Source: a phage. Taken from it: a stretch of 64,000 bases of DNA. The notes under the pieces were generated by a model that had not been told where the DNA came from, did not search any database, and saw only the letters and a list, made by a program, of their open reading frames with translations. The stretch lies in sequence record PZ445432.1. One strand, given 5' to 3'. Position 1 is the first letter of the stretch, and each line of letters begins with the position of its first letter. Positions 2,626 through 48,886 of this stretch are shown piece by piece. Both the position numbers and the translations under genes were made by a program.

Positions 2626-2865
2626 TGATTCTTTGAGCAAAGAAGAAAGTTCAGCATATACTTTATCTAACTCAAACCCTATGCGAAGAGATACGTTAGT
2701 CCTCCGTTGTTTAAGTAACCACTCGGATATGTTAGGGATGCCAGCTAGTCTAGCAGGAACCACCCTACATAGCTTCTCCGAAGTATCATAAACAGGGACT
2801 TTACGTTCTTTTACTGGAAACTTCCTTGTTTCCCATTTTTTATTCTTCACTGTCATTTCTAGCAC
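2623..2865 (-). CDS. hypothetical protein
   Basis: ORF from track. Confidence 0.4.
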   Translation of the reverse strand: MLEMTVKNKKWETRKFPVKERKVPVYDTSEKLCRVVPARLAGIPNISEWLLKQRRTNVSLRIGFELDKVYAELSSLLKES

Positions 2866-5827
2866 CTAGCTCTGACATTGCTTCTTCTGCCATAGCCTTC
2901 TCTTCCTCTGTCATGAATTTGAAAGGAATTGGCATACACTCGATTTTACAATAGGTTCTGTACCAGTCTACGATATTCTCCGTGTTCATATCTTTACCAA
3001 TACCCATCATACCAAGATACATTCTAGCATATTTTGGGTTAGCACTCTGGCCTGTTTTAAGGAAGAAATCCTTTTTCTTACCTTTTAGAGCTTCTATGAA
3101 TGGTTTAATGGTTACATTTGAACACTTCTTAATGTCTTCCCAGAACATCTCGTGCATCTTATGAAAGAATGCAGCTCGATCATTTGGTTTATCTTTGATA
3201 TATTGTTCAACATGCTCAACTGTTACATCTTTAATAGACTCAAGATGATAATAGCGAACAATAAGTAGTTTAGCTTCATACGCATCAGCATGACGTGGAG
3301 CACAATAATCCGGAGTTGAATGTAGAATAGCTTTGATTCGCTCTTCTGTGTACTCTTTACCAGCACCTTCAATAGTTCCCCAGCTTTCACTGAAAATATC
3401 AATAGTTGCACCCTGATCAAGCAAGTAATAACGTAAAGTACTAGTATAGTTCCTAGATTCCAGCTCCCTGCGACGTGCGTATAATTGCTGTGCTAACTCC
3501 AGCCAACCCTCATCAATGTTATACTGTTCAGAACCTGCGGAGAATCCACTCGTAGATTTATCAATAAAATAATAAATGTTCTGAGCGCCACGGTCGCGCC
3601 TGATTGCTTGGAAACGCATGTTTGGCGCTTGATTACTGGTTCTAGTAATAACAAATACGTTATCAAAATAGTTGAAGTCAACTCCACTCGTTACGGATGG
3701 ACTACATAATAAGCAATCAATTTGTTGATCAATTAGCTCATTAGTTGTGTAATCCAGAATACGTCTAATATCCACATCTGATGTGGAGTTTGAGTGGATT
3801 TCCTTAACTAACGCACCAGTATTACGACGTAGTGCCATGCCCTTCTCATTCAGCTCATCAGGGCCACAATCAGATACTAGAATAGATTTCTCACCCATCT
3901 CTAGAGAAGTCTGAAGTGCAACCCAAATACTGGATTCATCGGGGAACTCATAAGCGTGAGCTTTTGACAGCATTTTACGGTGATGATTATAAAATGCTAC
4001 TGGTTTATCGAACTCAATCAAAGAACCATATGCTTCAATTGTTTCAGCACTAATATCACCATCGGATAGTATAATGATTTTTGCAGTTGCAAGAATATCA
4101 CGAAGAACCTGAATACACTCGCGACGTTGCTTAACAACTGGGGCGAATAATAGGTCATTCATTACTGCATCACATTCATCGATAAAGATTGCATCAATTT
4201 GACCAATAAAACTCTTAAACTTATGTAAAGAGTGGATAGTTGTGGACATACGGTCAATAGCACCACGCTTAAAATTAAGCATATCTACAGACTTATCATA
4301 TTGTCCTGCACTAAATTTCTTGGCATTTGAAGACACCAGTGCCCTAGTATTGGTAATTGCTAAGAAATTACCTTTAATAACTCCTGAATCTAACCAACGC
4401 ACAACTGCCGTGGTTTTACCTGTACCTAGACTTGCTTTTACAAAAGTCATATAACCTTCTGGTGGTACAGTGTTTAATTTCAAGAAGTTATCAGTTTCTA
4501 GAGAATTAGTTTCTAATTTTTTAAGTGGAACACCTTTTAATACTTCTGGGATCTCACGCTTAGAGTTATTAACAAAGGCTTTTAATGCCTGTTTTCGACC
4601 GTTATTAAAATAATCTTGAATATTACGACTATTATCTTTAGTTGCAATATACTCAGATAAAGCTGGGCGGATCTCCTTCTCTAGCCAACCAAAATCTACA
4701 CCATCCTCTAACGCTCGGTGATATAGCTTTGGAATAATACGTAGATATACACCATCCTCAGCCTCTTCTAACTCGCTAATGGTTTCTTCTACTTTATCAG
4801 AAGCAATCTTTTTGCCTTTAATTTGATCGAGTAAAGAGTAGAATTCCTCTTTAAACTCCCCTCTAGTTGTTTCATAGTCAACCAGATTATTAGGTAAATT
4901 TACTTTAGAACCCTTAACAAATACCAGACGTGAAGCACCCTCCGCTTTAAACGGATCAACTATACCATCAGTAAATAAAGGATCTGCAAAGTAATGGAGC
5001 TGTACGGAAGAGTAATAAGCTAAGTCGGCAATATCAAAGCCATACTTTTGTCTACTACTTTCATTGATAGATGTAAATAAGAACTTGATCTGACCCTGTG
5101 TAACTTTAACATTAGATTCTAGTATTAAGTGCATTCGGATACCTGGTTTTAGTCCAGCCGAAGACGATGCATGAGCAATAAACCCTGCATCAAGAGGAAA
5201 CATATCCTCACTAATACTATTCAACATTCTAATAATATGACGCGCCATGCCAACAAGATCAAACTTGTTACAACCTCCTGTATCTACAATACCATCCACG
5301 TCCATTGCAATTATATGACTTGGGTTAGATACATTAAAGTTGTCCTTCTTACGCCGCACATTATTTTTAGGTGCAAGACATCGACCTCGTACCGCAACGA
5401 TATGGGGGTCAGACGTTAAACGTCTCATAAGAGGGAGCATTTCTACTAGGGTTTGAGGATCAACTTCATCAATTACATCAAACTTGAAGGGCATTGAAGC
5501 TGGTTTACCTTCAGGATGCTTTGAGGAAAATCTTTTAGCAAAAAGATAATCTTCTGCTTTAACTTCTCGCCAATTGCCCGTGGCTAAATCGCGATGAAAT
5601 CCTGCATGACCTTGTAGGATTGAGAACACAACAATACTCCTGTGTTGGAAATGAAATAAGTTTTCTTTAGGACTATTCAGAAAGAATAGAACAACTGTTA
5701 CTGTCAATTTCTCAACAATTAATCGCAAATACTGAAGTGGGGTGGCAACTTCCACTTTCACGCTGCGCTGCTGCCTCATTATACCGCACAAATCCTTGAG
5801 GATGGCCGCTAAGCCGGATTTGCTCAC
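2840..5827 (-). CDS. putative SF2 helicase / replication origin-binding-like ATPase
   Basis: Walker A LGTGKTT, DExD-like IFIDECD, motif VI-like QAIRRDRG; N-terminal ~110 aa look non-protein-like, true start may be the internal ATG at 5494. Confidence 0.65.
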   Translation of the reverse strand: MSKSGLAAILKDLCGIMRQQRSVKVEVATPLQYLRLIVEKLTVTVVLFFLNSPKENLFHFQHRSIVVFSILQGHAGFHRDLATGNWREVKAEDYLFAKRFSSKHPEGKPASMPFKFDVIDEVDPQTLVEMLPLMRRLTSDPHIVAVRGRCLAPKNNVRRKKDNFNVSNPSHIIAMDVDGIVDTGGCNKFDLVGMARHIIRMLNSISEDMFPLDAGFIAHASSSAGLKPGIRMHLILESNVKVTQGQIKFLFTSINESSRQKYGFDIADLAYYSSVQLHYFADPLFTDGIVDPFKAEGASRLVFVKGSKVNLPNNLVDYETTRGEFKEEFYSLLDQIKGKKIASDKVEETISELEEAEDGVYLRIIPKLYHRALEDGVDFGWLEKEIRPALSEYIATKDNSRNIQDYFNNGRKQALKAFVNNSKREIPEVLKGVPLKKLETNSLETDNFLKLNTVPPEGYMTFVKASLGTGKTTAVVRWLDSGVIKGNFLAITNTRALVSSNAKKFSAGQYDKSVDMLNFKRGAIDRMSTTIHSLHKFKSFIGQIDAIFIDECDAVMNDLLFAPVVKQRRECIQVLRDILATAKIIILSDGDISAETIEAYGSLIEFDKPVAFYNHHRKMLSKAHAYEFPDESSIWVALQTSLEMGEKSILVSDCGPDELNEKGMALRRNTGALVKEIHSNSTSDVDIRRILDYTTNELIDQQIDCLLCSPSVTSGVDFNYFDNVFVITRTSNQAPNMRFQAIRRDRGAQNIYYFIDKSTSGFSAGSEQYNIDEGWLELAQQLYARRRELESRNYTSTLRYYLLDQGATIDIFSESWGTIEGAGKEYTEERIKAILHSTPDYCAPRHADAYEAKLLIVRYYHLESIKDVTVEHVEQYIKDKPNDRAAFFHKMHEMFWEDIKKCSNVTIKPFIEALKGKKKDFFLKTGQSANPKYARMYLGMMGIGKDMNTENIVDWYRTYCKIECMPIPFKFMTEEEKAMAEEAMSELGARNDSEE

Positions 5828-6330
5828 CTAATGCTTCATATACTAGCTCATACTAGATGCAATATAACTTACAGAATCACGTCTCGGTAGTTTTTCACTC
5901 CTCCCATCTCACTTCACAACCACCTCATACTAGGTTGCTTCGAGGCCTTACCAGGGTTCCTATGGGACGCAGATCGCTAAGTATTCTATTAACTATTTGT
6001 TTAAAAACTAACACGTAACAGTTAAAACAACCCTTAATGGGGCAGCCTAACTGTTCCGTATCGCGGATTGTAAACAAGAAAAAACTTTTTCGTAAAGCTC
6101 TAGCAACGTACCTTATGCAGCTATTTACGGGTCATCGATTCCTCTCGCCGTAAATCCATTGTCAGCTTCACTAAGAAAAATTAGCAAAATCAATTTTTAC
6201 TAATGTCTCTCAATTCAATATAAATATTATAGCAAGATTTTGAGCATCATGCAAGTAAATTTTTAAGGAGAATGCTATCAGTGTCTTTGAGCACAGTGAA
6301 AACCGAGCCAAAATGACTCGGTTATGTGGA

Positions 6331-6525
6331 TTAGACACTTAAAATACTTCTAATCTCTTCTATATACTTATCTACTTTTTTAGCATCTATTTTACTTAGT
6401 TTTCCTATATCAAAATCAGGATCAGTCAAATATCTTGCCATAAATTTTACTTGTTTAGCTGAAAGTTGACCCTTATTCCACTTTTTAATTTTACCATAAC
6501 ATACCCAATATTCTTTATTCATCAT
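6331..6525 (-). CDS. hypothetical protein
   Basis: ORF from track. Confidence 0.4.
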   Translation of the reverse strand: MMNKEYWVCYGKIKKWNKGQLSAKQVKFMARYLTDPDFDIGKLSKIDAKKVDKYIEEIRSILSV

Positions 6526-6907
6526 TTAGTCCCGAAACATAAATCCCAACACGGTTTAATTGTTCTTTGGCTTCTTTGAGAATATCTGGAGTGTACTCCC
6601 AAATATCATCTTCCACCTGTAAAAGATGGGGCGAACAACCGTCATCGGGCACACGACATATGGCCAAACCACGTGGATGGAACAAAGAGAAATTTAGTGC
6701 AACAATTAAACCCATAGCAGACAACTCATTCCAATCCAATTCCCATTCCCTAGCGTAGCCTGATAGGAAAACACCAATACAGGGATCGTCTATTTGCTGC
6801 TCCGGAAAAGTAAAGGAGGCTTGTCTTACCCCCAACCAACGTTGTAGCAGCTTCTCCGCACGCTTCACCAAACTAGGATCAATCTGACGCCAATATACTT
6901 GTTCCAT
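6515..6907 (-). CDS. hypothetical protein (paralog of 6917-7345)
   Basis: shares CIGVFL...W.EL.AMGL..ALN..LF.P block with the adjacent ORF. Confidence 0.5.
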   Translation of the reverse strand: MEQVYWRQIDPSLVKRAEKLLQRWLGVRQASFTFPEQQIDDPCIGVFLSGYAREWELDWNELSAMGLIVALNFSLFHPRGLAICRVPDDGCSPHLLQVEDDIWEYTPDILKEAKEQLNRVGIYVSGLNDE

Positions 6908-6916
6908 TGTGCCACC

Positions 6917-7345
6917 TTAGGCAGTTAAACCAGGAATTTGATAACCAAAACGACGAAGTTTCTGGATACCATCATTTACTTCTTCCGGTGAGTAAGACCA
7001 ACCGTAATGTTCATCAACTTGAAAGCCAGGAGATTCACTGGTTTTATAGTTAACAACAATACGGTGTTTATTGGGCATAAATAGCTTATAGTTTAATGCA
7101 AAAACCAACCCCATTTCATCCAGCTCTTTCCAGCCGACAATCTCTTCCAGACCATCCTCTACCTGCACAACTAGACCAATACACGGGGCCTCATCAATAT
7201 CATCTTTAAAAGCAAAGGAGATTTCATTATTTTCACACCATATTTTCAAGGAGTTAATAGTCTCATTATACAGGCTAGCTGGGAGAGTACGCCAGAAGTT
7301 AACCAAAATTGGATTAGCTTCTTTAGAGAATACATTATTGAACAT
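6917..7345 (-). CDS. hypothetical protein (paralog of 6515-6907)
   Basis: CIGLVVQ...WKELDEMGLVFALNYKLFMP similar to neighbour. Confidence 0.5.
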   Translation of the reverse strand: MFNNVFSKEANPILVNFWRTLPASLYNETINSLKIWCENNEISFAFKDDIDEAPCIGLVVQVEDGLEEIVGWKELDEMGLVFALNYKLFMPNKHRIVVNYKTSESPGFQVDEHYGWSYSPEEVNDGIQKLRRFGYQIPGLTA

Positions 7346-25201: not shown

Positions 25202-25993
25202 TAATAAATTAGAGAACAGCGGGCCGATTACGCTGAGTGCAGAATCCAAACCGGAGTGCATTGAATAGAGTCGGTGGGTTAGTTGTAAAACTAGTACACA
25301 GTGGGCGGCAATCCCGGTTAGTGGCTAGAACGTGTAAAATGGGGCGTCTGAAACCTCTCCCCTAAACTCTTCTCTAGTTTATAAATAGTGGGGTGTGGAA
25401 ATCACTTATGTAGTAACACTGCCGATCTAGTATAAACGGTATTATCAAGCCGTAACTGGTGGAAGATGTAGGTTCGAATCCTACGATCGGTAAGAACTGG
25501 ATAACTGGTGCTTTTAACGTAAAAGCTTCCGAGGTTAGTTGCGCACTGCCTAAACCACGCGGTAGTTGGTTCCAGACTAACCAACCAGTCTGCTGAATAG
25601 TTTTATTACGATTTAACTATGTCCAGGCTAAAGAAGAACTTTAGAAGGTATTCTAGGTGGTGAAGTTTTTCCTCCATATCGGAGTAGTTTTTCAAGCTAC
25701 CAACAAAGTGGGAAATGCTGACATGAGAGATGTCACTAATGGTGCACAATAGCACAGGTAATTCGCGATAACTCCTGTTGAGTAGCAGCAAAAGGCGGGA
25801 AGTCATGACCCCAAGCCTAACCGAGTCCTCAATATACCGCAGGACATAACCACTAAGTCACCCTGACTTAAACTGGAAAATAATAGACGTTACTGTATTT
25901 TGTCTTGAAATACTTAATGAGTGAGACTTATGACTCTCCCGGTATCGTCTGTATTTTTAAGAGTTTTTACGAGAGTTCTTAAAAATACTTAAA
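25202..25993 (+). ncRNA. candidate non-coding RNA region (ORF-free, promoter-driven)
   Basis: ~800 nt downstream of a consensus promoter with no plausible plus-strand ORF; contains hairpins and one tRNA-like element. Confidence 0.3.
25421..25492 (+). other. tRNA-like element (canonical T-arm and acceptor pairing, other arms unresolved)
   Basis: gtaggttcgaatcctac T-arm; gccgatc/gatcggt acceptor; D and anticodon arms did not fold canonically by hand. Confidence 0.35.
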
Positions 25994-26068
25994 CGGGGTG
26001 TAGTCTAAGGGAGAGGCAGGAGTCTTCTAAATTCCTTTATGCAGGTTCGAATCCTGTCACCTCGGCCA
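25994..26068 (+). tRNA. tRNA-Arg (anticodon UCU)
   Basis: hand-folded cloverleaf: acceptor cggggtg/cacctcg, D stem gtct/aggc, anticodon loop cTTCTaa, T-arm gcaggttcgaatcctgt, encoded CCA. Confidence 0.8.
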
Positions 26069-26102
26069 ATTTTATTAACTGTAACTAAAACAAAGGAAAT
26101 AT

Positions 26103-27050
26103 ATGTTTAATACTAAAAATATGAAAGAACTGACTTCTGAGCAAAAAGTAATTCGCACTATTAAACGTTGGGGTATTGGTTCTGTAGTTGGTTTAGCAGG
26201 TTTAATCCTAGCTTTTAATTCATATACTATTGTTTCTGATGGTACAGTTAAAACCCAAACATTTCTGGGTAAAGTAGATCCTAACCCAGTATTACCTGGT
26301 TTCCATCTTGTAAACCCATTTGCATCTTTCGATACTTTTAGTACAAAAGATATTGCTGTAAAATTAGATAAACTTCAGGTTCCTAGCCAGGATAAGTTTA
26401 AATCCACTGTTGACCTGACTGTTATGTTGCAGTTTGATGGTTCTAAGGCACCGATCAACCGTATTAATGCAGGTACTCAGGATCAGGCGTTAGACAAATA
26501 TGTTACTGAAAAATTACTGTCTACCATCCGTGAGTTTGGTAAGTCTGTACCTAAAGCACAAGATTTGTTTGATGCTAAAATTCAAGCACAATTACAAACT
26601 GCAATTCAACAGGAAGTTGAAGAGTATGCACGCCCTTATGGTTACACAGTTAAGCAAGTGTTCCTTCAGGATATTACATTGCCACCGGTAATTATGGAAC
26701 AGGTACAGAATACCAAAGTTCGTGAAGAACAAGTTAATGCTGCGAAAGCTGAATTGGCTCGTGTTGAACAAGAAGCACAGCAGAAGGTTAAACAAGCAGA
26801 AGCAGATCGTGAAGCTCGTAACAACCAAGCTATTGCAAACGAACGTGATGCAGATGCTAAACTGTATGCAGCTAAGAAAGAAGCCGAAGCTAACGCCGCT
26901 CTGCAACGTACTATTACTCCTGAGATGATTCGCTGGAAACAACTAGAAGTTGAAATGACTCGTGCTCAGAAGTATCAAGGTGGTGTGCCTCAGACTGTAG
27001 TAGGTACTGGTTACGATGGTCAAATGATCATGGATATGCGTAACAAGTAA
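26103..27050 (+). CDS. SPFH (band-7 / HflK/C-like) domain membrane protein
   Basis: N-terminal TM segment, SPFH-like core, C-terminal coiled-coil QEAQQKVKQAEADREARN. Confidence 0.65.
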   Translation: MFNTKNMKELTSEQKVIRTIKRWGIGSVVGLAGLILAFNSYTIVSDGTVKTQTFLGKVDPNPVLPGFHLVNPFASFDTFSTKDIAVKLDKLQVPSQDKFKSTVDLTVMLQFDGSKAPINRINAGTQDQALDKYVTEKLLSTIREFGKSVPKAQDLFDAKIQAQLQTAIQQEVEEYARPYGYTVKQVFLQDITLPPVIMEQVQNTKVREEQVNAAKAELARVEQEAQQKVKQAEADREARNNQAIANERDADAKLYAAKKEAEANAALQRTITPEMIRWKQLEVEMTRAQKYQGGVPQTVVGTGYDGQMIMDMRNK

Positions 27051-27073
27051 TAGTTACACGTAATCTTCGAAGT

Positions 27074-27114
27074 AAGCCCTGTGTTCCCTGGAGAGCGCAG
27101 GGCTTTTCTGTTTT
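27074..27114 (+). terminator. rho-independent terminator
   Basis: aagccctg...cagggctt hairpin followed by ttctgtttt. Confidence 0.65.
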
Positions 27115-27264
27115 AAGGTAGAGGATAAGTGTGTCTCTTTGGTCACTCAGCTATGACAAATACTTTACACTATATCACATTGAAAATCAAGTGGGGATAA
27201 CAATTTTGGGGTCTATCCACTTACCTGCTACCCTTAAGCATCCTGTTATTTTCCTCTAAAAAGT

Positions 27265-27308
27265 TAAAAAATTCAATTGCTTGAATGCTAAATTCTCTGT
27301 ATAATATA
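27265..27308 (+). promoter_or_regulatory. conserved early sigma70 promoter
   Basis: aaaaaattcaattgcttgaatg...ctgtataat. Confidence 0.55.
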
Positions 27309-27337
27309 CTTATAAATTTGAGAGAGAGGAATCTAGT

Positions 27338-27856
27338 ATGACTGTTGATGAACTAACAGAACATCTCTTATCTAGAGGGTTTGATACAGATAAGTATCAT
27401 TGCTGGTTAAGTCCGGAAGGATGGCTAACAGTCCCGTTGTATGACTTCTCTGGGATGTTGAGAGGCTATCAGACTTATAATCCTTCTGCTCCAAAAGGTC
27501 ATGGTAAGTGCCCCTTTGAAGCTAAATATTTTACTTATTCAACTACACAGTGTGTATGGGGATTAGAAACTCTCAATGGAGATGAAAAAGTAGTATTGAT
27601 TGCTGAATCTGTATTTAAGGCAGTTGCGTTACATAACGCTGGTTATCCAGCCCTGGCAATGTTGGGTTCTTCCCCCGGAAAAGCATTGTTAAAGCAATTG
27701 AAATTATTACCTTTTAAATTGGTAGCTGTCGGAGATAATGATCCTGCGGGTGAAAAATTTGCTAGAAAATTAAACGGCTTTGTTTCTCCTGTAGATGTAG
27801 ATGAGATGTCTACCGAAAACTTGAAAAATTTTCTTGCTATGAAGCTAAATTTCTAA
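27338..27856 (+). CDS. hypothetical protein
   Basis: ORF from track. Confidence 0.5.
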   Translation: MTVDELTEHLLSRGFDTDKYHCWLSPEGWLTVPLYDFSGMLRGYQTYNPSAPKGHGKCPFEAKYFTYSTTQCVWGLETLNGDEKVVLIAESVFKAVALHNAGYPALAMLGSSPGKALLKQLKLLPFKLVAVGDNDPAGEKFARKLNGFVSPVDVDEMSTENLKNFLAMKLNF

Positions 27857-27864
27857 TATAATAT
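27830..27864 (+). promoter_or_regulatory. sigma70 promoter for the tRNA cluster
   Basis: ttgcta, 17-bp spacer, tataat, embedded in the 3' end of the preceding ORF. Confidence 0.45.
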
Positions 27865-27876
27865 ATTTATAAATTC

Positions 27877-27965
27877 GGAAGAATAGCATAACGGTATTGC
27901 AGCAGATTGCTAATCTGTCGGTTTGAAATATAGCCTTGTGGGTTCGATTCCCACTTCTTCCGCCA
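27877..27965 (+). tRNA. tRNA-Ser (anticodon GCU), type II
   Basis: acceptor ggaagaa/ttcttcc, anticodon arm gcaga-ttGCTaa-tctgt, long variable arm, T-arm gtgggttcgattcccac, CCA. Confidence 0.8.
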
Positions 27966-27971
27966 AATTCT

Positions 27972-28049
27972 GGTTCTCAAGCTCATATGGTATGAGCACC
28001 CAGCTCATAACTGGAAGGTACGTAGGTTCGAATCCTCGGGGAGCCACCA
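27972..28049 (+). tRNA. tRNA with CAU anticodon (Met or Ile2)
   Basis: anticodon loop ctCATaa; D stem gctc/gagc; acceptor ggttctc/gggagcc with G-U pairs; T stem imperfect; CCA. Confidence 0.6.
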
Positions 28050-28068
28050 AATTAAATAAGGACAACTA

Positions 28069-28257
28069 ATGGAATTATTCATAGTTTCTGTTAAATTTGC
28101 ACAAGATAGAGAACGTTCGGATGAGTTTAAACAAGGGTACAGACTAGTAAAGGCTACATCTGAACTCCATGCTATGGACAAAGTAGTAGACTATATGTAT
28201 AATGTAGAAGATGTTTACTACGTCAATGCTTTAGAAGCCTCAAAAGTAATTGACTAA
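28069..28257 (+). CDS. hypothetical protein
   Basis: ORF from track. Confidence 0.45.
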   Translation: MELFIVSVKFAQDRERSDEFKQGYRLVKATSELHAMDKVVDYMYNVEDVYYVNALEASKVID

Positions 28258-28266
28258 GGAGACTAT

Positions 28267-28452
28267 ATGTCTAAGTTTCAAGAACTCAAGCAAGAGCTAG
28301 AAGAATGTGCCTGCCCTGAGTGTAGAGGAATTGGTGAAAGTTCTGATGCAGAAGCAGTGGATACTTTTTGCAATATCTGGGTTTGCCCAAATTGCAAGGG
28401 TACAGGTATTAATCCTAACTGTGGTATTTCTCTAGATATTGAAAGAGGATAA
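28267..28452 (+). CDS. small Cys-rich zinc-ribbon-like protein
   Basis: CACPEC...CNIWVCPNC paired Cys motifs. Confidence 0.45.
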   Translation: MSKFQELKQELEECACPECRGIGESSDAEAVDTFCNIWVCPNCKGTGINPNCGISLDIERG

Positions 28453-28552
28453 TACCTGTGAAACTAAAAGATTATTATATTGGTTGGTTTGTGGGACTAG
28501 TAGTAGGATTTTCACTAGGCTATAATATGTATCAACTAATAAACTGATTACA

Positions 28553-28627
28553 TGGGGGTGTAATCGAATTGGCATAGGTACTGTACTTAAAATTCAGGTT
28601 TTGTGGGTTCGAATCCCAGCGAGGCGT
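28553..28627 (+). other. tRNA-like element (unresolved fold)
   Basis: gtgggttcgaatcccag T-arm; no canonical acceptor partner found by hand. Confidence 0.3.
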
Positions 28628-28675
28628 AACTGCCTGGTGTGATAGAGGCATCATTCCACTAATATTGGAAAACTA

Positions 28676-28906
28676 ATGAAACGAAAATTAAAAAAATCTT
28701 ATATAATTAAGATAAATAAGCTAAGAAGTAGGGCAAAAGGATGGCCACTTCGGATATTAATTGCGGATAACCATATTAGATACCATGCGGAACAACGTCA
28801 TTATAAACAGTGGGAGTCATACTGCCGCTCAAAAGCAGGTCGTTTAGATGGATCTTATGAGTTTCTATTTGGTAAGAAGCCTACTAGAGTAGCTTTAGGT
28901 AATTAA
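28676..28906 (+). CDS. hypothetical basic protein
   Basis: ORF from track. Confidence 0.4.
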   Translation: MKRKLKKSYIIKINKLRSRAKGWPLRILIADNHIRYHAEQRHYKQWESYCRSKAGRLDGSYEFLFGKKPTRVALGN

Positions 28907-28992
28907 TACTTGGAAGAGCAAATCGAATTGGCGACGAAAACCGCTTGGAAAGTGGCTGACCGGTAAAACGGCTTGAGAGTTCAAATCTCTCC
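28902..28992 (+). tRNA. tRNA-Ser (anticodon GGA), type II
   Basis: acceptor ggaagag/ctcttcc, anticodon loop ttGGAaa, long variable arm, T-arm gagagttcaaatctctc, CCA. Confidence 0.8.
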
Positions 28993-29004
28993 TCTTCCGC
29001 CAAA

Positions 29005-29099
29005 CAATTTATATGGTAGGTCAATCCAACGGCTGGCGCTGGACTCCGACTTGAAATCGGTTGATCGTAGTGATACGGTGTAAGGGTTCGATCCCCTTA
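29005..29099 (+). tRNA. tRNA-Ser (anticodon UGA), type II
   Basis: acceptor ggtaggt/acctacc, anticodon loop cTTGAaa, long variable arm, T-arm aagggttcgatcccctt, CCA. Confidence 0.75.
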
Positions 29100-29465
29100 C
29101 CTACCTCCAAATCTTGAAGTATGCCGGAATCGGTAGACGGGGCTGCCTAAAAGGTTTATAGGGAACATCCACTCCCTGCAACATACCTCATAAAGCGGCT
29201 GAGATAAATGGTCTATCTCGTGAAGGTTCAAGTCCTTCTGCTTCTTGATACATCTATGGCTCAAAGTGTAACGGTGCTATTTGATGCTCTTGGTAAGACT
29301 TCCCCGACATGCGTTCGGGAGTAAGCTGCTAAGACTAGAGTAGAAGAGTTTCTGAGAGCCGCCACAATTGAAAATTCGTACTCGTCTTGAGCTGCGTGCA
29401 ATAGGAGATAACTTGATTAGTATTCTAGAACATGCTAATTGAGGATGGTTTCGCTAACCCTGCGA
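29100..29465 (+). ncRNA. candidate structured RNA region including a tRNA-like T-arm (29212-29228)
   Basis: ORF-free 365 nt between tRNAs; gaaggttcaagtccttc T-arm-like hairpin; 13-bp inverted repeat ccacaattgaaaa/ttttcaattgtgg (29353-29365 and 29457-29469). Confidence 0.3.
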
Positions 29466-29542
29466 GTTTTCAATTGTGGCTATATCATAATTGGTTAATG
29501 ATCCTGATTGTGAATCAGGCCTATGTGGATTCGAATTCCACT
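29466..29542 (+). tRNA. tRNA-His (anticodon GUG)
   Basis: acceptor gtggcta/tagccac, D stem tcat/atga, anticodon arm cctga-ttGTGaa-tcagg, T-arm gtggattcgaattccac, CCA. Confidence 0.8.
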
Positions 29543-29577
29543 AGCCACCCCAAATTAACTTAAATAGGAAATAAAAT

Positions 29578-29775
29578 ATGGCTGATTTCTGCAAACAATG
29601 CTCCATTGATATGTGGGGCAGAGATACTGGTGATCTTTCTGGTTTGATTACAGAAGCCGAAGTCAAAGAAGGTTATGGTGCAGTTGTGGTTTGCGAAGGA
29701 TGCGGAGTTATTCGAGTAGATCATGAAGGCAAACGTTTAGAAGAACCGGAAAATTTAGGAGAAACAAATGAGTAA
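29578..29775 (+). CDS. small zinc-ribbon-like protein
   Basis: CKQC ... CEGC paired Cys motifs. Confidence 0.45.
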   Translation: MADFCKQCSIDMWGRDTGDLSGLITEAEVKEGYGAVVVCEGCGVIRVDHEGKRLEEPENLGETNE

Positions 29776-30004
29776 TGCTTTAATTAGTGAAATTATGTTA
29801 ACACGTCTTGCAGAACTGCAAACTCTTCGAGATGAATCTCAGAATAACTTATCCTACCATAAACAGATGGTAGATACTCTTACTACTCGTATTGAAACTT
29901 ACGAGCGTGATATTGCAGCATTACAAGCTCTTTTCTCCGTATCAGCACCAGATACGTTAGAACAGCCTGCTGTATCTCAGCCAGTAGAGACAGCATCTAG
30001 TTAA
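29768..30004 (+). CDS. hypothetical coiled-coil protein
   Basis: ORF from track. Confidence 0.45.
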   Translation: MSNALISEIMLTRLAELQTLRDESQNNLSYHKQMVDTLTTRIETYERDIAALQALFSVSAPDTLEQPAVSQPVETASS

Positions 30005-30013
30005 TAGCATTTT

Positions 30014-30089
30014 TGGAGTGTAGATCAATTGGCAGATCGTCGGCCTCTGACTCCGAAGGTTCCTGGTTCGATCCCAGGCACTCCAGCCA
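30014..30089 (+). tRNA. tRNA-Gln (anticodon CUG)
   Basis: U1-A72 acceptor tggagtg/cactcca, D stem gatc/gatc, anticodon loop cTCTGac, T-arm cctggttcgatcccagg, CCA. Confidence 0.75.
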
Positions 30090-30095
30090 AATAAT

Positions 30096-30171
30096 TGGAG
30101 AGTAGTGTAACGGTTAGCACAACGGCCTTTGACTCCGTTAATGGTAGGTTCGATTCCTCCTTCTCCAGCCA
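30096..30171 (+). tRNA. tRNA-Gln (anticodon UUG)
   Basis: U1-A72 acceptor tggagag/ttctcca, anticodon loop cTTTGac, T-arm gtaggttcgattcctcc, CCA. Confidence 0.75.
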
Positions 30172-30178
30172 AAATAAT

Positions 30179-30253
30179 GCGTGATTAGTTCAGTGGCTAG
30201 AACAACTGGCTTCCAACCAGTAGACACGAGTTCGACTCTCGTATCCCGCACCA
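30179..30253 (+). tRNA. tRNA-Gly (anticodon UCC)
   Basis: anticodon arm actgg-cTTCCaa-ccagt, D stem gttc/gaac, T-arm acgagttcgactctcgt, CCA; one U-C mismatch in acceptor. Confidence 0.75.
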
Positions 30254-30267
30254 AATAAGGAATCTCT

Positions 30268-30519
30268 ATGCACGTTTTTGAGTTTCGTAATAAAAGTACC
30301 AATAAACGAGTTATTGTTATTGGGGAAACATATCGAGCATATGAACAAACTGACGGCTCTGTTATCTTGAATGATGAGAAAGGGGGTTTTAGCTTTTATC
30401 CAGAAGAACCTTATGAAGAGTTTCGAAAACAATTTAACCTAGACTGGAGAAAGCATTTAAACACTGTTGCTTCATCTGTAGTACTGCCAACTACCAGTAC
30501 TGTACTATCTAATGGCTGA
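30268..30519 (+). CDS. hypothetical protein
   Basis: ORF from track. Confidence 0.45.
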   Translation: MHVFEFRNKSTNKRVIVIGETYRAYEQTDGSVILNDEKGGFSFYPEEPYEEFRKQFNLDWRKHLNTVASSVVLPTTSTVLSNG

Positions 30520-30676
30520 TAACCTAAAAGTCAAGATCGACAAACAAAAGAAACGTGTAGAAGTAGAGATTGGTGAAGAACGTGTAGCCTTCACCTTTGA
30601 ATTTCTACAACAAATGGCAATGACAGTTATGACTGATAAGTCTCCTGTTATTGAAAAAGAAATCCCGTTGAAATAA
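30512..30676 (+). CDS. small hypothetical protein (54 aa)
   Basis: hand-translated MADNLKVKIDKQKKRVEVEIGEER...; followed by cccgttgaaataacggg hairpin. Confidence 0.3.
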   Translation: MADNLKVKIDKQKKRVEVEIGEERVAFTFEFLQQMAMTVMTDKSPVIEKEIPLK

Positions 30677-30684
30677 CGGGTTCT

Positions 30685-30771
30685 GCTGGGTTGGCAGAAT
30701 GGTTGAATGCACCTGATTTGTAATCAGGAGGAGTAATCCCGTTGCAGGTTCGAATCCTGTGCCCAGCACCA
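30685..30771 (+). tRNA. type II tRNA, anticodon read as UGU (identity uncertain)
   Basis: acceptor gctgggt/gcccagc, anticodon arm cctga-ttTGTaa-tcagg, 15-nt variable arm, T-arm gcaggttcgaatcctgt, CCA. Confidence 0.55.
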
Positions 30772-30785
30772 ATTTAAGGACTATT

Positions 30786-30953
30786 ATGTTTAAACTGTTA
30801 GTAGTTATCTGGTATAGTCAATCAAATAGAGCGAATACCTCCCACGTTATAGACTTTACTACTAAAAATGAAGCTGAAAAAGCATATGCTAATTTAATAG
30901 AACGCAATAAAGAATCTCGTAGTATAGTTTATGAAGTGACTAAACTTTATTAA
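30786..30953 (+). CDS. hypothetical protein
   Basis: internal ATG with AAGGA RBS; track ORF start 30759 overlaps the tRNA and is trimmed. Confidence 0.4.
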   Translation: MFKLLVVIWYSQSNRANTSHVIDFTTKNEAEKAYANLIERNKESRSIVYEVTKLY

Positions 30954-30992
30954 AAATTCATTTGCTTTCCCTCTTATTTATTGTTATAATAT
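30952..30992 (+). promoter_or_regulatory. conserved early sigma70 promoter
   Basis: aaaaattcatttgctttccc...ttgttataat. Confidence 0.55.
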
Positions 30993-31020
30993 TTATATAA
31001 ATTAATGAGAGGGAAACCAA

Positions 31021-31311
31021 ATGAAACGTTATCTTTCTGTTATGTTCCAAACCGGCGGCCAAAGATACACCTATGAATTTCCACCTTCCTGGAAAATCAG
31101 GGAAGGTGATCAAATAGTTGTGTTGACACCGCGTGAAGAATATAAAGTAGTGACGGTTAAACAAGTATTTCCAAAAGATCATGAACCAGCTATAGGCATC
31201 CGATATAAGATGATTCATGGCGTGGTTCGTCAAGTACCACGAACTGAGGTAGAAGTAGATAATACTGGAGAAACTAAATTCCATTATACTTCTTACTTAG
31301 ACAGTGTGTGA
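31021..31311 (+). CDS. hypothetical protein
   Basis: ORF from track. Confidence 0.5.
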   Translation: MKRYLSVMFQTGGQRYTYEFPPSWKIREGDQIVVLTPREEYKVVTVKQVFPKDHEPAIGIRYKMIHGVVRQVPRTEVEVDNTGETKFHYTSYLDSV

Positions 31312-31326
31312 TGTAAATATTTTAAT

Positions 31327-31403
31327 GCTTCGGTAGCTTAGCGATCTAAAGCACTCGGCTGATAACCGAGAGATCAGGGGTTTAAATCCCTCCCGGAGTA
31401 CCA
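31327..31403 (+). tRNA. tRNA-Ile (anticodon GAU)
   Basis: acceptor gcttcgg/ccggagt with G-U pairs, D stem gctt/aagc, anticodon arm ctcgg-ctGATaa-ccgag, T-loop tttaaat, CCA. Confidence 0.75.
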
Positions 31404-31499
31404 AATCTAGGAATTAAGACTATGCGTCCAGGAAAGTTTAAAAAAGCTAGTTGGTCTAAAGAGTACAAAGAATACTTACTTAGCCTAGTAAAACGTAAT

Positions 31500-31575
31500 A
31501 GTTAGTTGGCAGAGTGGTTATGCGCCTCCTTCATACGGAGCGACTACAGTGGTTCAAATCCACTACTAACTACCA
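31500..31575 (+). tRNA. tRNA with CAU anticodon (Met or Ile2)
   Basis: acceptor agttagt/actaact, anticodon loop ttCATac, T-arm agtggttcaaatccact, CCA. Confidence 0.7.
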
Positions 31576-48161: not shown

Positions 48162-48886
48162 TGAGTATTAAAAAGAATTTAGCAGAGATTATTAAATTAG
48201 CTAGAGCTTGTAATGGAAAATGTGTTTCTCAACTTAATGAACTAGAGGCACATGCAGTAGCGTTTTGTGCAGAGTTTTATCCTGCATATATTAACGCTAG
48301 TGGACAGCCGAAATATAATAAAGATGCAGAAGAAGTTACGTTAGCTCCTTCGTATATTAGTATACGTCGTCTGATTCAAACTGTTGACCCTAATATTAAA
48401 GGATTTTCAGCAGATTCATTCCATGTTTTTGCGGATAAAGAACTCCCACATTTTAAAGAAGGAAGTGCAAAGACAGCCCTAGAATGTTATCCTAATATTT
48501 TGATGATTCCACCTAAGCAATGTAAGTATGATCATCTTCCTAGACTTACAAAGAAAGTAGAACCACCTTATTCTTCTCTATCTGAATTAAAGCTAGGAAT
48601 TGTATCTACACTTGCGCAGGTTCATCTAAGTATAGTTGACGACTCAACAACATCTAATCCAGTCTTAGATGCTGCACATTATGAAATTTTACGTGACCCT
48701 GAACAGGCTAGAAAAGTTGCGAAGTCTGTTAAGTTTGACATCTCAACAATTCTTGATACGATGCAAGATACGAGACCTAGAGGAAGTGTAGATTATTCTG
48801 CGCTAAATTCCGAGTCATCTTACCTAGCAACATTCCTTTTCATGGCATCGAAGGGAATCATACTCAAAGTCAATCACGATGTATAA
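48161..48886 (+). CDS. hypothetical protein
   Basis: ORF from track. Confidence 0.5.
   Translation: MSIKKNLAEIIKLARACNGKCVSQLNELEAHAVAFCAEFYPAYINASGQPKYNKDAEEVTLAPSYISIRRLIQTVDPNIKGFSADSFHVFADKELPHFKEGSAKTALECYPNILMIPPKQCKYDHLPRLTKKVEPPYSSLSELKLGIVSTLAQVHLSIVDDSTTSNPVLDAAHYEILRDPEQARKVAKSVKFDISTILDTMQDTRPRGSVDYSALNSESSYLATFLFMASKGIILKVNHDV

Follow-up and report, generated by a model that had tools for sequence, protein, structure and literature searches.

A candidate structured RNA in the leader of the D2 helicase gene of T5-like phages

We analyzed a window of 64,000 nucleotides (nt) of phage DNA (sequence record PZ445432.1), here with a focus on a minus-strand helicase gene and the gap upstream of it. 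Over this region the DNA matches Escherichia phage HildyBeyeler (Bas33, MZ501074; Demerecviridae, Tequintavirus), a relative of phage T5, at 100% identity, and window coordinates equal MZ501074 coordinates minus 43048. The gene is the ortholog of T5 gene D2 (obp in AY587007). We find that the 701 base pairs (bp) from 5630 to 6330, upstream of this gene, are non-coding. Judging from the way they vary among relatives, they very probably specify a conserved, structured, sense-strand RNA of ~400 nt (6071 to 5673). Our account as a whole, which joins this anatomy to a mechanism acting in cis in the D2 leader, is offered tentatively, as something slightly short of an even bet.

The D2 gene and the gap upstream of it

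The open reading frame (ORF) listing contains a minus-strand ORF of 995 codons (2840 to 5827) that opens with GTG. The HildyBeyeler record has a coding sequence (CDS) of 929 amino acids (aa) here, named 'DNA primase', which starts at 48677 (window 5629); homologs in relatives are annotated 'replication origin binding protein'. The T5 D2 protein is a biochemically characterized bipolar helicase that is required for DNA replication (PMC3632103; Wong et al. 2013). In a profile search, positions 1 to 927 of PHROG 3712 matched residues 1 to 926 of the 929-aa protein. Pfam Herpes_ori_bp (PF02399; herpes UL9-type helicase) matched residues 394 to 533 (E = 3e-7), consistent with a helicase core carrying Walker A, and a sequence search of the Protein Data Bank agreed with Pfam, with UL9-type chains matching residues 388 to 532. 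Note that the likeness to UL9 is limited to the helicase core, and origin binding is a putative property.

The GenBank CDS, the alignment of N-termini and the PHROG 3712 match place the gene at 2840 to 5629 on the minus strand. It almost certainly starts at GTG 5629, as in the GenBank record, and neither at 5827 nor at an ATG at 5494 (MPFKFDVIDE). GTG 5629 is residue 67 of the long ORF and the ATG, which is in frame, is residue 112. A Shine-Dalgarno AGGAG (5637 to 5641, minus strand) stands 7 nt before GTG 5629 and is invariant across the Markadamsvirinae, whereas ATG 5494 is preceded by GGTAAACCAGCTTCA, without a comparable AGGAG-type site. Translation from the equivalent start gives MFSIL(Q/E)GH.GF.RD..TG.W in T5, Bf23, AKFV33, Pectobacterium phage My1, Providencia phage PR1 and Klebsiella phage EK80, and the N-terminus of Vibrio phage pVp-1 is recognizably homologous from the same point. 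ATG occupies the position of GTG 5629 in My1, EK80 and pVp-1. A MAFFT alignment of six genera begins at residue 1, with M1 and G7 invariant. Over codons 1 to 45 of the gene (5629 to 5495), differences at the first, second and third codon positions number 6, 4 and 18 against T5 and 11, 6 and 23 against Sugarlandvirus, which is a third-position bias. Active T5 D2 helicase has been expressed from the equivalent GTG (PMC3632103).

Upstream of this codon the frame does not behave as protein. Stop codons sit a few codons before the conserved start in many relatives, and the in-frame stop-free run there ranges from 0 to 66 codons, reaching 66 in only five of 20 HildyBeyeler-type sequences. On the basis of this variable open length, the upstream stops and one-base insertions or deletions, we assign the 66 in-frame stop-free codons at 5630 to 5827 (minus strand) to the untranslated RNA leader. 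We therefore place the start at GTG 5629 because N-terminal homology, third-position bias, PHROG coverage, upstream stops and expression in T5 point to it together.

A preliminary description of the window had instead read the first ~110 codons of the long ORF as non-protein, started the helicase at ATG 5494 and left ~830 bp (5495 to 6330) non-coding. The ATG is indeed present in frame, and in the most distant relatives (Athena-type Vibrio phages and Aeromonas phages) tblastn similarity starts only near residues 112 to 114 of the long ORF. However, homologs divide the long N-terminal extension that the description had proposed to compare. Residues 1 to 66 (5827 to 5630) are not conserved and are non-coding, as it had supposed, whereas residues 67 to 111 (5629 to 5495) are conserved from the aligned start codon in six genera, including Vibrio pVp-1, and code for protein. 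The methionine at 5494 is leucine in My1 and PR1 in the six-genus alignment. Together with the third-position bias over 5629 to 5495, the strong AGGAG before GTG 5629 and the coverage of the PHROG 3712 profile from position 1, this leaves a start at ATG 5494, with all of 5495 to 6330 non-coding, extremely improbable. Since codons 67 to 111 are conserved as protein, the gap is therefore 5630 to 6330, or 701 bp.

Other records of T5-like phages differ at this place. The RefSeq records of Sw2 (L005, 1974) and oselot (L006, 2019) put the D2 start 32 to 41 codons upstream of the conserved GTG, within the RNA element, and Sw2 and Stubb annotate small hypothetical ORFs in the leader. These leader annotations are likely over-annotations, of the kind suspected in the preliminary description. 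Knowing the gene start is important when constructs are designed for expression, and also for annotation pipelines, of which some extend the ORF. The result also argues against calling small hypothetical ORFs in the gaps of 500 to 700 bp that lack annotated genes in T5-like genomes.

From the helicase gene to the small ORF that ends at 6331 there is no conserved ORF, in keeping with the ORF-free region of the preliminary description. Its suggestion that such a region could hold a promoter or regulatory sequence or a non-coding RNA was also apt, given a T5P32-type promoter and the predicted conserved RNA. The D2 homologs of My1, PR1, Klebsiella EK80 and Vibrio pVp-1 likewise have upstream gaps of 590 to 715 bp in which no gene is annotated. 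At the upstream end of the gap, a terminator-like hairpin (6299 to 6322, minus strand; inverted repeat I21) consists of ACCGAGUC-AUUUU-GGCUCGGU followed by UUUU, and would end the upstream transcription unit. With its 8-bp stem it falls below the threshold of a simple scan; it is labeled a putative rho-independent terminator in T5 and Bf23.

A predicted early sigma-70 promoter (6226 to 6254, minus strand) follows, with a −35 box TTGCAT (6254–6249), a 17-nt spacer and a −10 box TATAAT (6231–6226) preceded by TGC. It is orthologous to the site that the T5 record calls 'putative early promoter T5P32' and agrees with the T5 consensus TTGCTT-N17-18-TATAATA given in the AKFV33 record (TTGCAT, 17 nt, TATAATA, with AAAAATTTA upstream). 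A generic scan missed it because the −35 box matches TTGACA at only three of six positions. We assume the start-point spacing of the T5 promoter PN25, which, counted from the −10 box, puts the presumed transcription start at ~6219. The conserved leader start, AUUGAAUUGAGAGACAUUAGUAAAAAUUGAUUUUGCUAA (6181 to 6219, minus strand), is near-identical across the Markadamsvirinae. Between promoter and start codon lie ~590 nt, ~450 nt of them between a 97-nt insert and the start codon. We found no leader peptide or small gene in this stretch: ORFs of at least 30 aa differ in position, strand and sequence between types and none is conserved in frame, and one-base insertions and deletions occur in the leader within one sequence type. 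A TATAAT at −154, considered as an extra promoter, was rejected, since it occurs in only a subset of the HildyBeyeler-type sequences and has no −35 box.

A probable structured RNA in the D2 leader

The element (5673 to 6071, minus strand) would fold into ~12 helices, P1 to P12, as judged from RNAalifold, pair counts, covariation and a helix-transfer test. P1 (6071–6065 with 6033–6027) closes a loop that holds the conserved 21-nt motif m1, ACGGAACAGUUAGGCUGCCCC (6039 to 6059). P2, drawn from RNAalifold and the helix table, is a long closing stem of ~38 bp in five segments (6024–5980 with 5733–5692). Its first 21 bp, made up of P2a (10 bp) and P2b (11 bp), have one bulged G, and an exact 9-nt inverted repeat within it (5693–5701 / 6015–6023) was detected independently in a repeat scan (pair I16). 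The inner domain (5763 to 5972) is closed by P3 (5972–5967 with 5768–5763). Inside it, P4 (5966–5962 with 5907–5903) encloses the hairpins P5 and P6 (the latter 5938–5933 with 5921–5916), and P7 (5901–5897 with 5891–5886), P9 (5859–5852 with 5832–5825) and the P10 hairpin (5788 to 5823; 5823–5816 with 5795–5788) follow. P10 carries the second motif, m2, CGGCUUAGCGGCC (5816–5804), with an inner 4-bp stem and a UAGC loop. The P11 hairpin (5735 to 5757; 5757–5752 with 5740–5735) has the loop AAGUUGCCACC. Between the closing stem and the ribosome-binding site lies the P12 hairpin, CUAUUC-UUUCU-GAAUAG (5689–5684 with 5678–5673), which is not a terminator because no U-tract follows it. P6, P9 and P12 are taken from the helix table, while P3, P4, P7 and P11 are marked by compensatory changes. 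A poorly conserved linker of ~30 nt separates P12 from AGGAG and GTG, and the element ends ~45 nt before the start codon.

Two further pairings were not retained. In helix P8 (~5869–5860 with 5787–5778) the changes are mixed, some supporting and some disruptive, and we do not claim it. A local hairpin in which m1 would pair, AACAGUUA/UAACUGUU (6059–6048 with 6024–6013, pair I9), was rejected. A G-to-A change in Bf23 and Sw2 is compensated in the distal partner and not in m1, and My1 and DU_PP_V have no such complementarity. By eye, pairing between the m1 and m2 loops (GGCUGC with GCGGCC) is possible in all types, without informative covariation.

Variation within the T5-like Markadamsvirinae supports the fold. 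The ~300-nt core (~5735 to 5990) occurs as an H type (HildyBeyeler) and a T type (T5), ~45 to 60% identical, between leader ends that are ~100% identical. Because its mean column identity is 97%, the alignment of the 16 H-type sequences is independent of any structure. On it, RNAalifold finds 125 pairs, with standard pairs in 99.8% of cells. Five pairs (23 cells) are changed on both sides, two in P3 and one each in P4, P7 and P11, against 0 to 1 pairs in slid controls. The covariation score is 0.050, compared with 0.006 to 0.015 for slid structures, and none of 500 shuffles reaches it. Among one-sided changes in the H type, 11 pairs stay paired through G·U and three are broken, each in single sequences; with both types taken together, ~25 pairs are kept through G·U versus seven broken. 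The T type contributes six further both-side changes, in P3, P8/P10 and P11. The basal pair of P2 is G-C in HildyBeyeler, G·U in T5 and A-U in Bf23 and Sw2. P11 changes from U-A to G-C inside the H type and from A-U to G-C inside the T type, and P10 has two both-side changes between T5 and Sw2-like phages. Since 20 of the 125 pairs (~16%) are G·U, only the strand in the sense of D2 can fold, which excludes an antisense RNA and a DNA cruciform; a sense-strand fold agrees with the orientation of the promoter.

The fold can also be followed across genera. Helices of HildyBeyeler were mapped by interpolation between sequence anchors onto five other types (41 to 60% identity), and pairing was sought within ±5 nt of the mapped position. 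The transfers gave z = 3.9 to 5.7, each above all 300 local shuffles. Motif m1 lies at −401 to −426 from the start codon in five sequence types and m2, CUUAGCGG, at −170 to −187, and their spacing stays at 231 to 241 nt despite the replacement of the sequence between them. Within Sugarlandvirus, P1 is GCAU/AUGC in L039 and GUAU/AUAC in L066, a compensatory difference. The long AU-rich P2 stem is kept in every type. P2a is UAACUGUUAC/GUAACAGUUG in HildyBeyeler, GAUUAUUAUA/UAUAAUAAUU in DU_PP_V and GUUAUUAUAU/AUAUAAUAAC in My1, the last two being entirely different sequences with 10 of 10 positions paired. P3 reads CUGCG/CGCAG, CUACA/UGUAG, CUGUG/CACAG, CUAGAA/UUCUAG and CUACAC/GUGUAG across types.

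Sequence turnover around a kept motif is seen in P10, where the flanking helix of 5 to 10 bp differs in eight lineages (GCAAAUCC, AAUAGAAUC, CCACAUGG, UGGGUGCGGG, GAUACGGG, CCACG, CACCU and CCACCU). The helix table pairs GCAAAUCC with GGAUUUGU, AUAGAAUC with GGUUCUAU, CCACAUGG with CUGUGUGG, GGUGCGGG with CCUGCACU and GAUACGGG with CUCGUAUU. The inner 4-bp stem under the UAGC loop covaries too (GGCU/GGCC, GACU/GGUC, UGCU/GGCG and GCCU/GGGU). Because MAFFT misplaces gaps inside P10, a scan for motif plus helix was used in place of a covariance model. The m2 hairpin recurs in Proteus phage Stubb and in two PR1-like (Providencia) phages, where the flanking helices differ again. The P11 loop motif is kept in DU_PP_V, My1 and Sugarlandvirus, and the T type has a different hairpin at that place. 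In the place of P12 stand CUUUCC/GGAAAG in DU_PP_V and CUAUC/GAUAG in Sugarlandvirus. By this comparison, the predicted fold is kept by compensatory change and by complete sequence replacement across the enterobacterial Demerecviridae, including Klebsiella and Pectobacterium phages.

Several observations pull the other way. The cross-genus helices were placed by complementarity, and the shuffle control is the only guard against over-fitting. P4 to P9 of the T-type inner domain could not be matched helix by helix to the H type. The m1 and m2 motifs are not traceable in Vibrio or marine relatives, whose sequences, as compared here, are either 99% identical or too divergent to test structure; the homologous elements of PR1, Stubb and Vibrio phages could be worked out only in part. 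Folding energy is unremarkable (z = −1.3 sense, −1.7 antisense) and thus not distinctive on either strand, and the case therefore rests on comparative evidence.

The same energy would suit a quite different explanation, in which the conserved region is a DNA-level element with sites for a protein such as D2, or a neutral spacer preserved by recent ancestry, and the apparent RNA fold comes from the fitting. The flanking blocks, ~100% identical in the Markadamsvirinae, fit DNA sites or recent ancestry equally well. Against this stand the both-side compensatory changes in alignments that need no structural fitting, the strand-specific tolerance of G·U, the persistence of helices at fixed positions despite fully replaced sequence and the lack of repeated sites. 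We regard this explanation as very unlikely.

Core alleles follow neither genus nor the type of the D2 N-terminus among the sequences compared (T5 (L033), L035, L023 and L037). STG2 (L023) has the most divergent D2 N-terminus of the compared Markadamsvirinae (33 of 45 residues identical), yet an H-type core; L037 is HildyBeyeler-like around the D2 start, but has a T5-type core. This suggests that the RNA core has been exchanged between phages as a module.

Among known RNA families the element has no counterpart that we could find. A search of the window with Rfam 15 (4227 models, among them riboswitches, ribozymes, RNase P and tmRNA) brought only transfer RNAs (tRNAs) to gathering score. On the region itself, E ≤ 10 gave one spurious 14-bit match, and on seven relatives E ≤ 1 gave one unrelated sub-threshold match, at a terminator. 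Neither m1 nor m2 has a second copy in the window, and the element is absent from the E. coli genomes and plasmids searched. In a motif search of IMG/VR, m1 occurred together with m2 in T5-like phages only; nine m1 matches outside this group lack m2 and were set aside as chance matches. In all seven lineages with traceable motifs (six named genera), the element lies directly upstream of the D2 homolog. The promoter, terminator and gene start are already annotated in T5 or HildyBeyeler, and the structured element is annotated in none of the records examined. Literature searches, whose coverage was incomplete so that an older description may exist, found no paper on the D2 leader, and the element is apparently undescribed. 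The tRNAs of the window form a plus-strand cluster at 25420 to 31575, in which Rfam finds 11 and ARAGORN 10; the one at 27972–28046 is reported by Rfam only, and ARAGORN gives an unusual Ser(ACU) anticodon for the one at 25420–25493.

In relatives, inserted sequence is found before the promoter or in the leader's 5' part, and in no case between core and gene. The homing endonuclease of AKFV33 and the 64-aa ORF and 97-nt insert of HildyBeyeler all lie outside the core-gene interval. In AKFV33 (L007), the putative homing endonuclease gene (1016–1468) stands between the DUF7415-family gene and the D2 promoter, and the unit of promoter, leader and D2 is intact. In oselot (L006), ATTTTGCTA occurs three times in tandem at 1636–1666 in the conserved 5' part of the leader, as against once elsewhere, and is annotated as a repeat_region.

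The optional 97-nt insert of the window (6084 to 6180, minus strand), defined by its presence or absence among relatives, sits in the 5' part of the leader with TTTTTCTT on both sides. These 8-nt direct repeats look like the duplication footprint of an insertion or recombination event. The insert is present in 51 of ~530 related phage records (~10%), in one place each, always at the same site and on both core types, and is absent from T5, Bf23, Sw2, oselot and AKFV33. It contains the hairpin that the preliminary description had singled out. The arms ATTTACGG (6155–6148) and CCGTAAAT (6130–6123) do pair over 8 bp around a 17-nt loop, but the ninth pair implied there is a C/C mismatch. An 8-bp inverted repeat with a short loop is only weakly unexpected (~0.2 by chance in 700 bp, by our estimate), and this one is not part of the insert's minimum-energy fold. 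We consider the insert an accessory module because it is limited to 51 records and because the hairpin is missing from that fold. The hairpin is thus not the key feature of the region: it belongs to a dispensable insert outside the conserved element.

The 64-aa ORF that bounds the gap (6331 to 6525, minus strand) matches PHROG 29527 over its full length (E = 2e-40). It is unannotated in the HildyBeyeler record, annotated in phage NR01 and absent from T5, and it overlaps the stop of the upstream DUF7415 gene (6515–6907) by 11 nt. That gene is the first of two adjacent paralogous small genes of 130 and 142 aa (6515–7345, minus strand), both conserved upstream of the D2 leader across T5-like phages; the 130-aa product matches Pfam DUF7415 in two stretches.

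Possible roles of the leader RNA

We propose that the promoter drives a transcript from ~6219, in which the folded element would form the 5' leader of the D2 messenger RNA (mRNA), and that the element acts in cis on this mRNA. The long near-perfect P2 stem would be a double-strand-specific processing site for host RNase III. Cleavage there would separate the ~300-nt folded core from the D2 message, and the processed mRNA would begin near the P12 hairpin. Such processing could determine how stable and how well translated the message of this essential replication helicase is, or when the helicase is made, and the conserved loops would be contacted by a protein partner or by other parts of the RNA in its tertiary structure. 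That the RNA acts by cis processing or regulation of the D2 mRNA is the reading we favor, although we hold it with slightly less than even confidence; that P2 in particular is an RNase III site separating core from message we would hold, if anything, a shade more loosely.

P2a and P2b together reach the length of near-continuous duplex (~20 bp or more) that RNase III is expected to need. P2 is longer than needed just to close the domain, which is the most suggestive feature of the element. The sequence and a terminator scan show no terminator between the folded element and the D2 start. Other points count against processing or regulation in cis. The transcription start, the reach of the transcript and the cleavage are all inferred, and RNase III recognition is not predictable from sequence. 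Between the element and the ribosome-binding site or start codon we find no pairing that is conserved, the best-matching site being a different one from genus to genus, and we therefore do not propose a simple sequestration switch. A Markadamsvirinae candidate for masking of the ribosome-binding site or start by the core (~−150) was rejected, as it does not covary with codon 2.

The lack of conserved pairing with the D2 translation start would equally suit a stand-alone RNA. The core would be released from the leader and act in trans, as a protein platform or decoy or as a counter-defense RNA, and its position before D2 would only give it early expression. A core of ~300 nt, with at least 10 helices and several invariant loops, exceeds the needs of known translational operators, and its long closing stem resembles the stalks from which ribosomal RNAs (rRNAs) are released. 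H and T cores have also been exchanged between near-identical flanks, like a self-contained module. However, an independent gene would be expected to move sometimes, whereas the element stays immediately upstream of D2 in every traceable lineage, with no terminator between them; our searches found it once in the window and only in T5-like phages. We therefore think a role in trans unlikely, and return to processing or regulation in cis as the better account of this fixed position.

Position also bears on a link to replication itself. The structured transcript might form a persistent R-loop near the D2 gene and prime or mark initiation, with D2 as the initiator helicase acting next to its own gene. 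The appeal of this idea is that D2 is presumed to be the initiator and that the origins of T5 are unmapped. A structure of ~500 nt that has to fold correctly is what ColE1 RNA II has, and the unit of promoter, RNA and gene is conserved. The element lies directly upstream of the gene for this presumed initiator, at a locus that, by record coordinates, stands at ~49% of the T5 genome. The paper on D2 notes that amber mutants in the gene make no DNA, and it puts D2 forward as an initiator (PMC3632103). The preliminary description had also allowed for an origin in the gap, but the idea is without support in the DNA, and nothing speaks for a classical origin of the iteron or DnaA-box type. There is no GC-skew switch, the skew being negative throughout 1 to 11.5 kb, and there are no iterons, only scattered short repeats in two or three copies. 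We see no obvious AT-rich unwinding block (GC is 0.37 to 0.40, as in the flanks), and the promoter scan showed no antisense promoter or RNA I-like partner. In addition, a recombitron study reported T5 replication to be dominantly unidirectional from one end (PMC10055335). A priming RNA or origin at this locus, with D2 acting beside its own gene, is thus quite improbable, somewhat more so than a role in trans.

A broader reading is that the element is a new class of large RNA, specific to T5-like phages, that is a functional partner of the D2 initiator helicase and more than a passive 5' untranslated region. We consider this doubtful, though less so than either of the two preceding alternatives. 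If true, it could mean either a primer or R-loop in the manner of RNA II that would define the long-sought T5 origin, or an RNA cut out of the leader that would recruit or regulate D2 or some host factor. Although T5 is a classic model among phages, neither its replication origins nor the way its essential D2 helicase is controlled have been defined. A ~400-nt fold with covariation support, fixed before D2 in at least seven lineages, is a testable candidate for a role in the origin or in control of D2. RNAs this large and structured are few, and new classes of them have tended to reveal new biology.

Comparison with known systems

The T5 D2 locus (AY587007) has the same terminator hairpin and promoter, the same GTG with AGGAG and a long untranslated gap (~470 nt from promoter to start in T5). 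In the T5 record, in contrast, promoter and terminator alone are annotated upstream of the gene, and the gap is left blank. T5 also has the other core type (~45% identical inside, ~100% at the flanks) and is without the 97-nt insert and the 64-aa ORF.

Among large non-coding RNAs, OLE, GOLLD, ROOL, HEARO and raiA offer the nearest likeness in scale: they too are at least 300 nt long, with many covariation-supported helices and invariant loops, and GOLLD and ROOL are associated with phages. However, no Rfam match reached gathering score, and none recurred in relaxed scans of the locus and seven relatives. Furthermore, the D2 element is bound to a single gene as its 5' leader and does not stand as a gene of its own near tRNAs.

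The operators of T4 gene 32, gene 43 and regA are likewise cis-acting RNAs in leaders of replication genes, and autoregulation by the encoded nucleic-acid-binding protein is plausible for D2 as well. These operators are 20 to 50 nt long and overlap the ribosome-binding site, whereas the D2 element is ~400 nt long, ends ~45 nt before the start codon and has no conserved pairing with start codon or ribosome-binding site. With the ColE1 RNA II pre-primer and the promoter-dependent T4 origins oriF and oriG the element shares a transcript of several hundred nucleotides, a sigma-70-type promoter, a fold under selection and a place beside replication functions. The D2 leader differs from them in having no antisense regulator, mapped origin, unwinding element, skew change or homology.

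Closest to the mechanism that we tentatively favor are the RNase III stems of T7 early mRNAs and of the lambda N leader, and the stalks of rRNA precursors. RNase III requires a duplex of a certain length, and it acts both at the processing stalks of rRNA and at sites that shape phage early mRNAs. There is no sequence similarity to these stems, and the T7 sites are short local hairpins between genes that do not close a 300-nt domain; cleavage of P2 is a proposal. The likeness lies in a long duplex whose strands flank a folded domain or gene, within an early phage transcript that host RNA polymerase makes, and P2, with 21 bp broken by one bulge and a total of ~38 bp, has the length that RNase III requires.

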